51,763 bases of DNA from a virus (Duplodnaviria > Heunggongvirae > Uroviricota > Caudoviricetes), in IMG/VR virus record IMGVR_UViG_3300045923_000005, positions 1 to 51,763 of that record. One strand, written 5' to 3'. The notes under the pieces are model-generated. The model searched no databases, was not told where the DNA came from, and was given only the letters and a program-made list of their open reading frames with translations. Position numbers and translations under genes: made by a program. Below, one piece after another: positions 9,801-12,743 of this stretch (position 1 is the stretch's first letter; each line of letters begins with the position of its first letter).

Positions 9801-9877
9801 TGGCTCTCCCGGAAGGACTGTACCTTCACTTCCACTGCCGTATTGGGCAGCCGCTCTGGCATTGGCGTACAGGAGAA
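9801..9877 (-). ncRNA. CCA-ended tRNA-mimic RNA
   Basis: UCUCC/GGAGA stem then G-CCA; internal UGUAC/GUACA and CUGCC/GGCAG; no cloverleaf. Confidence 0.5.
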
Positions 9878-9883
9878 TAAACT

Positions 9884-9990
9884 TGGTGACCGTGTTCGCG
9901 CGAGTCGCGAATCCACTTGCTGATATGTATGCGGCAAGATTGAACTTATCCGTCTATCAAATCGTAGTGTCCTACATCTCAAGACCGGTC
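9884..9990 (-). ncRNA. CCA-ended tRNA-mimic RNA (107 nt)
   Basis: GACCG/CGGUC then A-CCA; T-arm-like UUCGCG/CGCGAA hairpin; no D or anticodon arm. Confidence 0.55.
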
Positions 9991-9995
9991 ATAAA

Positions 9996-10072
9996 TGGCA
10001 TCCTCTACAGGACTCGAACCCGTAACATCCGAGGTAGAAGCTCGGCGCTCTATCCAGTTGAGCTAAGAGGAC
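9996..10072 (-). tRNA. tRNA-Arg(TCT)
   Basis: Cloverleaf, loop CTTCTAC, CCA. Confidence 0.9.
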
Positions 10073-10149
10073 ATAATTCTTGCCTGAAATACATCAGGCT
10101 TCTAGTTGTACAGTGAAGTGGAACACTCACCGGGACCCTTGTCCATATT

Positions 10150-10224
10150 TGGCACCCCTGACAGGACTCGAACCTGCACCCAACACGTTCGAAGCGTGCT
10201 GCTCTTCCATTGAGCTTCAGAGGC
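10150..10224 (-). tRNA. tRNA-Arg(TCG)
   Basis: Cloverleaf, loop CTTCGAA, CCA. Confidence 0.85.
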
Positions 10225-10229
10225 ATAAT

Positions 10230-10306
10230 TGGCGCACCTATGGGGATTCGAACCCCAGTCATCCCGCTTGAAAGGCGAGTATCCTGAGCCACTAGACGAT
10301 AAGTGC
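10230..10306 (-). tRNA. tRNA-Glu(TTC)
   Basis: Cloverleaf, loop CTTTCAA, CCA. Confidence 0.9.
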
Positions 10307-10320
10307 ATAAACTGAAAAGA

Positions 10321-10426
10321 TTAAGTTGAACGGTTCCGGGAATATTCGGTAGTCCGCCGTGATACCCATGACAGTACCAGCTTGAGGCGATGCCGCTCAT
10401 GACACGGCCAACTCTCGTCAACTTAA
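10321..10426 (-). ncRNA. structured spacer RNA
   Basis: Perfect 9-bp terminal stem TTAAGTTGA/TCAACTTAA, inner GCCGTG/CACGGC. Confidence 0.45.
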
Positions 10427-10429
10427 AGA

Positions 10430-10506
10430 TGGTCGGAGAGACAGGAATCGAACCTGCGACCTCATGCGCCCAAGGCACGCGCTCTACCAGGCTGAGCTAC
10501 ACTCCG
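10430..10506 (-). tRNA. tRNA-Pro(TGG)
   Basis: C1-G72, loop CTTGGGC, CCA. Confidence 0.9.
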
Positions 10507-10513
10507 AATAATT

Positions 10514-10589
10514 TGGCGCTCCTAACCGGATTCGAACCGGTGTGTCAACCTTGAGAGGGTCGCGAACTGGGCCTCTATTCTATAGGAGC
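10514..10589 (-). tRNA. tRNA-Glu(CTC)
   Basis: Cloverleaf, loop CTCTCAA, CCA. Confidence 0.85.
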
Positions 10590-10595
10590 AAAAAC

Positions 10596-10670
10596 TGGAT
10601 CACCGACTAGGACTCGAACCTAGATTCAGAGGGTCAAAGCCTCGCGTCCTGCCAATTAGACGATCAGTGA
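10596..10670 (-). tRNA. tRNA-Gln(TTG)
   Basis: Cloverleaf, loop CTTTGAC, CCA. Confidence 0.9.
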
Positions 10671-10765
10671 ATAATAAAGGAGGTTGGGAGCTCCTCTACC
10701 AACGACCCGCTTGCGCGCTCACATGGTTTACACACTGATTCAGTTGTGTGAAAGAAGCATAAACT

Positions 10766-10839
10766 TGGAGCGGAGTGCGGGACTCGAACCCGCTATGATA
10801 GTTTGGAAGACTATCGTGTAACCCAAACACTTATCCCGC
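10766..10839 (-). tRNA. tRNA-Gly(TCC)
   Basis: Cloverleaf, loop CTTCCAA, CCA. Confidence 0.9.
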
Positions 10840-10845
10840 ATAAAT

Positions 10846-10919
10846 TGGTCAGGGTACGGAGAGTTGAACTCCGGCCACAAGTTTCCAAAACTCGGATGCT
10901 ACCGTAACACCTTACCCTG
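10846..10919 (-). tRNA. tRNA-Pro(TGG), second divergent copy
   Basis: C1-G72, loop TTTGGAA (A37), CCA. Confidence 0.8.
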
Positions 10920-10929
10920 AAATAAATTA

Positions 10930-10985
10930 GCCGGGAGGCTTGGCATTTTGGCTCTAATTGCCTGGTGCGAGAGGCCTGTTCCGGC
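10930..10985 (-). ncRNA. repeated pseudoknot-like RNA motif, copy A
   Basis: Core CUCUCGCACCAGGCAAUUAGAGCCAAAAUGCCAA closed by GCCGG-AGGC/GCCU-CCGGC. Confidence 0.65.
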
Positions 10986-10994
10986 TTTACAAAT

Positions 10995-11069
10995 TGGCGC
11001 CCATACCAGGAATCGAACCTGGATCACAGTCTTCGCAGGACTGTACACTATCCGTTATGCTATAAGGGC
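10995..11069 (-). tRNA. tRNA-Arg(GCG)
   Basis: Cloverleaf, loop CTGCGAA, CCA. Confidence 0.85.
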
Positions 11070-11073
11070 AATT

Positions 11074-11147
11074 TGGCGTCCATCCAGGGAGTCGAACCCC
11101 GGCCCGCTGTTTTGGAGACAGCTGTGCTACCGTAACACTTGACGGAC
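11074..11147 (-). tRNA. tRNA-Trp(CCA)
   Basis: Cloverleaf, loop CTCCAAA, CCA. Confidence 0.9.
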
Positions 11148-11153
11148 ATTGAT

Positions 11154-11228
11154 TGGTACCTCACCACGGACTCGAACCGCGATTTGCCGCTAATCAGGCA
11201 GCCGTCCTTGCCTTTGGACGAGTGAGGC
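11154..11228 (-). tRNA. tRNA-Ile(GAT), U37
   Basis: Cloverleaf, loop CTGATTA, CCA. Confidence 0.8.
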
Positions 11229-11234
11229 ATAAAC

Positions 11235-11309
11235 TGGTACCTCGTGACGGGATCAAACCGCCGACATCCTCGGTGTAAACGAGGCGCTCTATCGCTGAGC
11301 TAACGAGGC
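11235..11309 (-). tRNA. tRNA-Val(TAC)
   Basis: Cloverleaf, loop TTTACAC, CCA. Confidence 0.9.
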
Positions 11310-11314
11310 ATAAT

Positions 11315-11393
11315 TGGCGACACCTACGGGATTCGAACCCGTGATCTCTACCGTGACAGGGTAGCGCATTAAGCCAGGCTATGCTAAGGTGCC
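11315..11393 (-). tRNA. tRNA-Asp(GTC)
   Basis: Cloverleaf, loop CTGTCAC, G73, CCA. Confidence 0.9.
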
Positions 11394-11403
11394 ATATTGA
11401 AAT

Positions 11404-11489
11404 TGGTGCGCCGTGATGGATTCGAACCACCGTACCCCGAAGAGATCTGTTTTACAGACAGATTGTTTTAACCACTCACACAACGACGC
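11404..11489 (-). tRNA. tRNA-Tyr(GTA)
   Basis: Long variable arm, loop CTGTAAA, CCA. Confidence 0.9.
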
Positions 11490-11502
11490 ATAAACTTTGA
11501 AT

Positions 11503-11570
11503 TGGTCCAGTATTTGTGCACCCTGCCACACTAGTGTCGGGTGACCGGCTCGGAGACCGGTAGAACTGGC
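11503..11570 (-). ncRNA. CCA-ended tRNA-mimic RNA (68 nt)
   Basis: CCAGU/ACUGG then A-CCA; two internal hairpins ACCGG/CCGGU and CACCC/GGGUG. Confidence 0.55.
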
Positions 11571-11579
11571 AACTAAACT

Positions 11580-11654
11580 TGGAGCCTTCACACGGAATCG
11601 AACCGTGTTCTGTGGATTACAAAACCACCGCGTCACCTTTTACGCTTTGAAGGC
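11580..11654 (-). tRNA. tRNA-Thr(TGT)
   Basis: Cloverleaf, loop TTTGTAA, CCA. Confidence 0.85.
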
Positions 11655-11761
11655 AGAATAAGAAGCCTGTATCGTCAGGCAGAACGATGGATTGAGCACC
11701 TGCACTGGCATCACGCGCCTGTTACAGCGGATGCTCTCGCCCGATGAATAGTCCACAAATT

Positions 11762-11838
11762 TGGTAGCGGAGTCTGGGACTCGAACCCAGGATCTCTTGC
11801 TTATGAGGCAAGCGAGATAGCCACTTCTCCAACCCGCA
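11762..11838 (-). tRNA. tRNA-Met(CAT), initiator-like
   Basis: GCGGG..GGAG start, probable 1-72 mismatch, loop CTCATAA, CCA. Confidence 0.8.
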
Positions 11839-11843
11839 AACGG

Positions 11844-11902
11844 TAGCCGCAGCGTCTTGACATTTCGGCTCTAATTGCCTGGTGTGAGAGGACGTTCTGC
11901 TA
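11844..11902 (-). ncRNA. repeated pseudoknot-like RNA motif, copy B
   Basis: Core CUCUCACACCAGGCAAUUAGAGCCGAAAUGUCAA closed by GCAG-CGUC/GACG-CUGC. Confidence 0.65.
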
Positions 11903-11910
11903 GCAAAACT

Positions 11911-11993
11911 TGGTACCCGAGACAGGAATCGAACCTGCATGCTTTCGCGTCGCGTTCTAAGCGCGGTGTGTCTGCCTATTCCACCACTCGGGC
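11911..11993 (-). tRNA. tRNA-Leu(TAG)
   Basis: Long variable arm, loop CTTAGAA, CCA. Confidence 0.9.
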
Positions 11994-12278
11994 ATAATCT
12001 TTCTTACGGTAGTTTCTTTCAAGTGTTCTGATAGCGTGGCAATTCGCACATCGTACGACGCATTTTGCTATTTCATTCTTGATGTCTTTCCATCCGTTGT
12101 ACATCAACGATCCTACCGTTTTGGTCTTGGTAGTTTCGTCGACATGATCAAATTCTAACGCTGCTGAATTGGCTTTGTAGCCACAGTCAGTACAGCCTTT
12201 CAACCGTTTGAAACGGGCGACGACTTTGCGTCTGTAGGCTGCACGTTCAATATCAGTAGGAAATCTTACTTTGCGCAT
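11976..12278 (-). CDS. small HNH endonuclease
   Basis: CTDCG...LEFDHVD...CVVRCANCH. Confidence 0.8.
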   Translation of the reverse strand: MRKVRFPTDIERAAYRRKVVARFKRLKGCTDCGYKANSAALEFDHVDETTKTKTVGSLMYNGWKDIKNEIAKCVVRCANCHAIRTLERNYRKKDYARVVE

Positions 12279-12292
12279 GAGATTATATAGTC

Positions 12293-12366
12293 TGGATCAC
12301 CGACTAGGATTCGAACCTAGGTTCTCTGGGTCAGAGCCAGATGTCCTGCCGCTGGACGATCAGTGA
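12293..12366 (-). tRNA. tRNA-Gln(CTG)
   Basis: Cloverleaf, loop CTCTGAC, CCA; same acceptor stem as Gln(TTG). Confidence 0.9.
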
Positions 12367-12373
12367 ATAATAC

Positions 12374-12448
12374 TGGTGGCGTGGAGAGCTACTAACTCCT
12401 TGCTTCAAGTCCTGCTGGGTGCGATCCAACCTCAACCATAGACACGCC
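12374..12448 (-). ncRNA. CCA-ended tRNA-mimic RNA (75 nt)
   Basis: GGCGUG/CACGCC then A-CCA; GGAG/CUCC T-arm-like hairpin; no valid anticodon arm. Confidence 0.55.
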
Positions 12449-12455
12449 ATAAACT

Positions 12456-12531
12456 TGGTGGGTTATGAGAATTACGATATCTCGACCTTACCGGTTAAAA
12501 GCCGGATGCTCTGCCTCTGAGCTAATAACCC
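12456..12531 (-). tRNA. tRNA-Lys(TTT)
   Basis: Loop CTTTTAA; T loop ATCGTAA; CCA. Confidence 0.85.
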
Positions 12532-12535
12532 GAAA

Positions 12536-12610
12536 TGGAGCGGACGAAGGGAATCGAACCCTCGAGCACAACTTTGGCAAAGTTGGGCATTACCATTCTG
12601 CCACATCCGC
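12536..12610 (-). tRNA. tRNA-Gly(GCC)
   Basis: Cloverleaf, loop TTGCCAA, CCA. Confidence 0.9.
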
Positions 12611-12617
12611 GTAAACT

Positions 12618-12698
12618 TGGAGTCCTGCGAGGTTAATGAAGCCTTCTTCGTCTGACGTACACGTCTGCACGCCAACCACTCGCCGAGTGTGACAGGAC
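12618..12698 (-). ncRNA. CCA-ended tRNA-mimic RNA (81 nt)
   Basis: GUCCUG/CAGGAC then U-CCA; hairpins CACUC/GAGUG and GACG/CGUC. Confidence 0.55.
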
Positions 12699-12743
12699 AT
12701 AAACTGGTGGACTACTAAGGCTTTCGCCGCTTCGCCCATGGAT

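Follow-up and report, generated by a model that had tools for sequence, protein, structure and literature searches.

The first 51.8 kilobases (kb) of a 115.8-kb virus contig (IMG/VR record IMGVR_UViG_3300045923_000005, 64% complete) carry a long array of tRNA genes, and other small RNA genes with tRNA-like ends are interleaved with them. This whole stretch of 51,763 nucleotides (nt) is referred to as the window. In this study, we found from the sequences that at least six of these units form a real set of tRNA look-alikes, which probably do not decode. Because three of them are kept better than most real tRNAs, the units probably represent working tRNA mimics. These three, E1, E4 and a mini hairpin, represent three small undescribed families under selection, and E2, E3 and E5 are orphans. 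The contig has T4-like genes, the phage is uncultured, and no close cultured relative of it was found. Within 3193-13081, ARAGORN detected 36 tRNA genes, all on the minus strand, and Rfam added a few; the array holds about 37. Logan lists the sequencing runs SRR35360338 and SRR35908228 as containing DNA of this phage. The units and three tRNA genes needed below are as follows.

E1, 9801-9876, minus strand: stem of 7 base pairs (bp), G, CCA; directly upstream of tRNA-Arg(CCU)
E2, 9884-9990, minus strand: 107 nt, four-way junction, 5-bp closing stem, A73, CCA
Seventh unit, 10685-10758, minus strand: 8-bp stem ending in U-CCCA; missed in the first-pass annotation
E3, 11503-11569, minus strand: 67 nt, three-way junction, 5-bp stem, C1-G72, A73, CCA
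E4, 12374-12448, minus strand: 6-bp stem, A, CCA; three-way junction
E5, 12618-12698, minus strand: 81 nt, four-way junction without T-arm, 7-bp stem (one G.U), U73, CCA
Mini hairpin, 12705-12737, minus strand: 33 nt, 4 bp, A, CCA; 6 nt downstream of tRNA-Ala
tRNA-Arg(CCU), 9720-9795, minus strand: the gene directly downstream of E1
tRNA-Ala(UGC), 12744-12817, minus strand: top four pairs and A73 the same as in the mini hairpin
tRNA-Asn, 13007-13081: a normal, separate gene

The first-pass annotation, made from the sequence alone, had placed six pieces among the tRNA genes. All six were found on the minus strand with slightly corrected ends. The stem, discriminator base and encoded CCA that it described were confirmed for the five elements and are present in the mini hairpin as well; the stems range from 4 to 7 bp instead of the claimed 5-6 bp. 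The non-cloverleaf interiors ascribed to the elements hold for E2 and E5 (four-way junctions) and for E3 and E4 (three-way junctions), but E1 is a cloverleaf in its minimum free energy fold. Placement was tested because a stem followed by N and CCA is common by chance, occurring 3.3 times per kb elsewhere in the genome. A unit was counted if it started 3-12 nt past the previous gene and ended 2-14 nt before the next one. The 12 spacers held six units with this tRNA-like placement. In 2000 dinucleotide shuffles, the number averaged 0.32 and never exceeded 4. When a stem of at least 5 bp was required, four units were seen against 0.10 in the shuffles. The linkers are short and A/T-rich, as they are between real tRNAs. 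The proposed tRNA-gene-like spacing is thus far above chance.

ARAGORN at default settings called none of the six units, and Rfam gave no match over any unit at E<=10, even for the tRNA model RF00005. With a relaxed ARAGORN score, E1 alone was called, as undetermined. The units share the acceptor stem, discriminator and CCA of tRNAs and lack a 7-nt anticodon loop within a cloverleaf: the loop of E1 has 6 nt, and E4 has a 7-nt loop but is D-armless. A protein-coding reading was rejected, as gene calling in contigs identical to the window placed no gene on E1, E2 or the seventh unit (E3-E5 lie outside these contigs). Antisense pairing of the units to the tRNAs, the RNase P-like RNA or the large leader RNA did not exceed 10 nt.

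Syntenic arrays of uncultured phages were retrieved through two neighbouring proteins. Complete arrays were obtained from L002, the closest one, and from L033, L034/L046, L036 and L051; partial arrays were obtained from L032, L037, L039, L040, L041 and L057. Two further contigs, L003 and L004, were 100% identical to the window and so had no comparative value, and neither of them reaches E3-E5. The arrays of the relatives likewise hold CCA-ended non-tRNA units, the types of which vary from phage to phage. Between the window and L002, 33 orthologous tRNAs were 57-91% identical (median 70%), and the identity was 86% for E1, 88% for E4 and 85% for the mini hairpin. Most real tRNAs are less conserved than these three units, which are therefore not decaying. 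The first-pass annotation had named progressive decay from ordinary tRNAs, with no conserved structure, as the outcome contrary to its proposal; this did not occur for E1, E4 and the mini hairpin, which also show compensating changes. The homolog search for covariation that it had suggested gave a result rarely matched by shuffles for E1, a weak one for E4 and a single change in the mini hairpin, as detailed below.

E1 has a full 7/5 cloverleaf in which a 6-nt loop replaces the anticodon loop and the D and T loops are remodelled. Its acceptor end consists of U1-A72, C2-G71, U3-A70, G73 and CCA. Seven copies of the family were found in six phages (the window, L002 twice, L034, L036, L039 and L051). 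Five of these phages have a copy immediately upstream of tRNA-Arg(CCU), and some non-decoding CCA-ended unit occupies this slot in 8 of 9 phages. All 84 cells of the acceptor and T stems were paired across the family (100%), compared to 40-64% in slid controls. Five pairs were altered on both sides, a number reached in only 0-1 of 500 shuffles. The constant positions are U1-A72 (6/7), C2-G71, U3-A70 and G73 (6/7), and the T-loop starts with UCCGA in five of the seven copies. The anticodon arm is different in every copy: it carries a loop of 4, 6 or 8 nt, a long capped stem or a branch, but in none of the seven an anticodon loop of 7 nt.

In the set of about 300 real tRNAs from these loci, the combination of A72 and G73 was restricted to tRNA-Asn. 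A scan of viral contigs with the 3' pattern of E1 retrieved a single member of the family, together with two genuine tRNA-Asn genes from other phages; as the latter were selected by the pattern, their high score on the E1 model is biased. The confinement of A72 and G73 to tRNA-Asn and the retrieval of tRNA-Asn by the 3' pattern indicate that E1 is an Asn-type body minus its anticodon. Bacterial and phage tRNA-Asn(GUU) shares U1-A72 and G73 with the E1 family, but its GUU anticodon loop is missing from every E1 copy. U1-A72 is the determinant recognized by GatCAB (PMC1635274). The low score of the phage's own tRNA-Asn on the E1 model gives no support to a descent of E1 from that gene. The E1 of the window and one L002 copy form a subtype in which the remodelled D and T loops are identical and the anticodon arm is different. 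Both subtypes lie side by side in L002, which suggests that they arose by duplication and then diverged. The heptamer AUGCCAG is repeated in non-tRNA RNAs of the window, including the D-loop of E1 (9586, 9664, 9862, 11711, 13791 and 13966, minus strand); it occurs just 0-3 times per 10-20-kb locus in the relatives.

The mini hairpin consists of four pairs, an internal loop and a GNRA cap. It was found in two phages, the window and L002 (6998-7030), at the same position 6-7 nt behind tRNA-Ala. Both copies have G1-C72, G2-C71, G3.U70, C4-G69, A73 and CCA, and thereby carry the alanine marks. G3.U70 is the alanine determinant and is active in minihelices (PMC9976931). C4-G69 was kept in the L002 hairpin although the tRNA-Ala of L002 has G4-C69, and the last five bases before the CCA were found solely in tRNA-Ala (5/342). 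One compensating change was seen in the upper stem with its GNRA cap; from two sequences only, this is weak evidence of covariation. In four relatives, the slot after tRNA-Ala holds a different conserved hairpin that is about 35 nt long and lacks CCA (L033 ~4030-4065; L034 4824-4863; L036 4484-4526; L051 ~5255-5295). More CCA-ended hairpins of 25-50 nt were seen in L033 (7502-7548), L034 (6626-6672), L036 (4289-4322), L002 (7888-7919 and ~12060-12086) and L040 (204-245); two of these have a glycine-type end (G1-C72, C2-G71, G3-C70, U73).

E4 is a D-armless tRNA-like RNA with an acceptor stem, a long interrupted helix, a GAAGC linker, a hairpin at the T-arm position, A73 and CCA. Copies were found in three phages (the window, L002 12332-12406 and L032 1260-1336), and E4 is absent from a 98%-complete relative. 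The N-U-C-G-C-A-N loop that caps the long helix and the GAAGC linker are conserved, and the hairpin at the T-arm position is variable. The first pair and the discriminator also vary across the three phages. Four pairs were altered on both sides, which was equalled in 16 of 500 shuffles; with three sequences only, this covariation is weak evidence. One possible reading of the conserved 7-nt loop is U33-CGC-A37 closed by a 5-bp stem; the acceptor has no alanine marks. As an alternative to an anticodon loop (CGC), the conserved loop may be a copied T-loop or T-arm, because 17 of 21 bases of the E4 hairpin are like the T-arm of a relative's tRNA-Phe. A likeness of 14-16 nt between E4 and T5 RNA2H was dropped, as the E4 model does not support it.

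The folding z-scores of E2, E3 and E5 were -2.3, -1.6 and -2.0, and selection on these three units is not established. E3 shows a weak 12-nt resemblance to a spacer of L037 and nothing more. The last 10 nt of E2 are those of the tRNA-Val(GAC) of the phage, the last 9 nt of E5 are those of its tRNA-Arg(CCU), and the mini hairpin has 8 terminal bases in common with one tRNA of the phage. Matches of 10, 9 and 8 terminal bases occur between tRNAs for different amino acids in 0.8%, 5.7% and 11% of cases, respectively. The shared termini of E2, E5 and the mini hairpin are suggestive and no more. In L002, L034, L036 and L051 the slot of E2 is occupied by an anticodon-less unit; the one in L036 has the same 5-bp stem as E2 and a different interior. 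A homolog of the seventh unit was found in L037 (E 1e-12), where it ends in G-CCA.

Searches outside the syntenic loci yielded no further copies. No homolog of any unit was found in cultured phages. Scans of viral contigs with the E1 D-loop 18-mer, the mini hairpin and E4 gave no match, and a metagenome scan with the E1 D-loop 18-mer gave 27 chance matches and no homolog. A scan of genome contigs returned unrelated HNH genes only, and a search with the HNH gene of the array returned mobile relatives only. We found no description of these RNA families in the literature. At least in parts of a large viral-RNA screen, tRNA-like candidates appear solely as overlaps with ARAGORN calls (PMC10690425). 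Phage tRNA arrays contain a gene layer that has been overlooked by tRNA finders and Rfam.

We propose that the units are small non-coding RNA genes that would be co-transcribed with the tRNA array from a promoter-like site near 14149. Two features of the window bear on their expression and maturation.

Candidate sigma70-like promoter, 14122-14149, minus strand: the best match upstream of the array, a consensus match only; also present in L002
Small RNase P-like RNA gene, 3831-4071, minus strand: homologs in 10 of 10 relatives checked

Judging from the anatomy of the units, from T4 and T5 and from the acceptance of small RCCA-ended substrates by RNase P (PMC12710915), RNase P and 3' trimming enzymes would excise each unit as a discrete stable RNA, with the stem, N and CCA ends and the A/T-rich linkers as signals. 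The excised RNAs would not decode, because their anticodon domains are missing, and they would stay uncharged, except perhaps the alanine hairpin. We consider excision as discrete, non-decoding RNAs to be probable. In the third and weakest step, the different acceptor ends that we observed (Asn-type in E1, Ala-type in the mini hairpin, Val-like in E2 and Arg-like in E5) would sequester host proteins recognizing the acceptor stem and CCA, and the real tRNAs would be spared. The most plausible targets would be toxins or defence effectors that attack tRNA ends, and the set would turn over between phages as their hosts differ. We put forward this whole chain, in which the units act as acceptor-end decoys, as a tentative reading that falls somewhat short of being probable. 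It is favoured because E1 and the mini hairpin conserve the acceptor end and because enzymes that read this end exist. The toxSAS FaRel2, which also modifies minihelices, chooses tRNAs by their acceptor pairs, and toxSAS take part in phage defence (10.1101/2024.07.05.602228). CdiA-CT EC869 requires G73 together with a weak 1-72 pair, a combination present in tRNA-Asn and tRNA-Gln (PMC9071432). GatCAB, with its recognition of U1-A72, is a further reader of this end (PMC1635274). The vague idea of a decoy has thus been made testable: the acceptor end is held and the anticodon arm erased in several ways in E1, and the alanine marks are held in the mini hairpin. The units need not have one common function. 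In a bolder form of the proposal, each threatened tRNA type (Asn, Ala, Val, Arg and others) would have its own decoy in a swappable panel that absorbs defence enzymes attacking the tRNA 3' end; we regard this form as rather unlikely. If true, it would be an RNA-sponge type of phage counter-defence, unlike the supply of resistant tRNAs, and it would give the stable RNAs of T4 and T5 a testable job.

Several observations weigh against the units being acceptor-end decoys. The L002 copy nearest to the E1 of the window has C1-G72 and the L039 copy has U73, so each of them drops one Asn-type mark. No clear homologs of E2, E3 and E5 were found by nhmmer in nine related loci, by eye in L051, or in cultured phages. 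The conserved interior of E4 and the conserved remodelled loops of E1 suggest functions beyond the acceptor end. The rescue of phage from retron-Eco7 by phage tRNA required an intact anticodon and hence acts via translation, not as a decoy (PMC11555353). In addition, nothing points to a particular target protein.

The stem and CCA may instead be merely a tag for maturation and stability, with the function residing in the interior through protein binding or regulation. The loop and linker of E4 stay constant in three phages and its first pair and discriminator do not; the interiors differ among all units, other conserved modules of the same spacers have closing stems without CCA, and T5 RNAI is built on the plan of E2 with a 5-bp stem, N and CCA. 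This interpretation fits E4, E2 and E5 better than an acceptor-end decoy does. In contrast, the E1 family conserves the acceptor end and T-arm while its interior arm varies, and the mini hairpin is little beyond an alanine acceptor end. On the whole, we think a mere tag is somewhat doubtful. The units may also be cutting signals that release the neighbouring tRNAs and are then discarded. The unit of varying type upstream of tRNA-Arg(CCU) in most phages agrees with this, and RNase P is able to cleave non-tRNA substrates of small size with an RCCA end (PMC12710915). However, the neighbouring tRNAs have ends and an encoded CCA of their own, most of them abut directly without such a unit, and amino-acid-specific ends and conserved loops would be needless in a discarded signal, which makes this role improbable. 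The related suggestion in the first-pass annotation, that the units are substrates suited to the RNase P-like RNA, is compatible with our data and does not discriminate; the mimics come and go, and this RNA neither explains nor excludes them, because all ten relatives checked have it.

Charged carriers working outside the ribosome were also considered. The mini hairpin would be alanylated by the host alanyl-tRNA synthetase and the other units by relaxed synthetases, and they would feed transferases or bind EF-Tu. The usual test microhelices are longer than the mini hairpin, which has just four pairs before its internal loop, and asparaginyl-tRNA synthetase requires the GUU anticodon that E1 lacks. 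No genes for a TROVE (Ro60) protein, a CCA-adding enzyme or PTH2 were found in the 64%-complete contig, and no RNA-handling family was seen among the flanking open reading frames in a search that did not include synthetase and transferase families. For this role speak the alanine determinants G3.U70 and A73 in both mini hairpins (PMC9976931) and the irregular tRNAs of peat polycistrons, which can be charged yet do not translate (PMC5389517). Such carriers seem to us hardly likely for the set, and the synthetase-substrate idea of the first-pass annotation is plausible for the mini hairpin only. Functionless tRNA genes, decaying or scrambled by recombination, are likewise an improbable source of the set. 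E2, E3 and E5 were found in no relative, their folding z-scores are modest and their ends resemble tRNAs of the phage, and HNH endonuclease genes are located in the array. Against this stand the conservation and compensating changes of E1, E4 and the mini hairpin, and the terminal stems of E2, E3 and E5 are intact, yet no part of these units scores as a tRNA at E<=10, unlike in point decay. Decoys for anticodon nucleases of the PrrC, RloC or PARIS type, another idea of the first-pass annotation, fit poorly and are very improbable. The 7-nt loop of E4 can be read as an anticodon loop, but it may be a copied T-loop; E2, E3, E5 and the mini hairpin have no such loop, and the anticodon arm is the freely varying part of E1.

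The spacers of the array contain other structured RNAs. A module without CCA lies directly upstream of tRNA-His (9566-9650, minus strand) and has a homolog at the same position in L040 (1015-1088, E 4e-11) and a partial one in L041. A motif of about 30 nt is duplicated at 10926-10988 and 11840-11905 (minus strand) with varying closing stems; it is not in Rfam and was found too in L001, L002, L034 and L037. A two-hairpin module at 10075-10145 (minus strand) has a homolog in L039 (592-667, E 5e-9). Many spacer RNAs of the clade that are unrelated to one another contain the motif AAUGUCCGAGU, at about 8040 in the window and in L002, L033, L034, L036 and L039; it resembles the Ro60-binding stretch of Y RNAs. 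A non-coding segment (7117-7367, minus strand; about 230 nt), the ends of which pair, is 75% identical to L002 9613-9870 and has no Rfam match. A trypsin-like protease gene lies within the array (8724-9431, minus strand), and L002 has one too. A canonical UUCRA T-loop was present in just 14 of 24 tRNAs in L037 and 16 of 32 in L051, compared to 23 of 24 in T5, which may be linked to the small RNase P-like RNA of this clade. Near the latter, downstream of the array, L033, L034, L036 and L051 have an RF-1-domain gene, possibly for an ArfB-like ribosome rescue factor; it was not seen at the corresponding place in the window.

A tag-less transfer-messenger RNA (tmRNA) was rejected for the mini hairpin: it has the alanine end but no region like a T-arm or D-loop, and ARAGORN finds no tmRNA. 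Synthetic minihelix-Ala or microhelix-Ala and the tRNA-like domain of tmRNA have, like the mini hairpin, G1-C72, G2-C71, G3.U70, A73 and CCA without an anticodon. Unlike them, the mini hairpin is genome-encoded, with four pairs before the internal loop, a GNRA cap, no T-arm and no tag frame. YrlA or Y RNA-like RNAs (RF02553) were rejected as well; their weak matches fell on real tRNAs and none on the units, which end open in CCA where a Y RNA-like acceptor stem would be closed by a loop. The irregular tRNA polycistrons and allo-tRNAs of Mukai et al. (PMC5389517) come from soil and peat, where irregular tRNA-like RNAs form arrays near toxin-antitoxin genes. Allo-tRNAs are 8/4 or 9/3 cloverleaves with anticodons and a long variable arm, whereas E1 is a 7/5 cloverleaf without an anticodon and the other units have no cloverleaf; this identity was therefore rejected.

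The first-pass annotation was correct that T4 has two stable non-tRNA RNAs in its tRNA cluster with function unknown (rnaC and rnaD, in the T4 annotation and PMC9697503). These species 1 and 2 RNAs (NC_000866 70908-71171) are, like the units, non-tRNA genes on the same strand as the tRNA cluster with tRNA-like ends. T4 has two such RNAs of 119-139 nt and the window at least seven of 33-107 nt; unlike the T4 RNAs, six units end in canonical N-CCA and several have amino-acid-specific ends. T5 RNAI, RNAIII, RNA1, RNA2 and RNA3 (AY543070), annotated as stable or tRNA-like stable RNAs of unknown function, are interleaved with tRNA genes as the units are. T5 belongs to a different phage family, and a 33-nt alanine hairpin is not annotated in it. 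T5 RNAI, with 107 nt and a 5-bp terminal stem followed by G and CCA, has the length and end plan of E2, and T5 RNA1 and RNA2, like E1, each have a tRNA body in which the anticodon arm is remodelled. No sequence homology to the T4 or T5 RNAs was detected (best nhmmer E 0.4), and the E4 model had no match in T4 or T5. Like the T4 and T5 RNAs, the units are non-tRNA genes in a tRNA cluster, on the same strand, with tRNA-like spacing, paired termini and a tRNA-like 3' end. They resemble those RNAs by position and ends but are not homologous to them in sequence, and in this sense our data support their description as tRNA mimics akin to the stable RNAs of T4. For decades, no function has been assigned to the tRNA-like stable RNAs of T4 and T5. 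The E1 and mini hairpin families show which half of such an RNA stays constant, a view that T4 and T5 do not offer.

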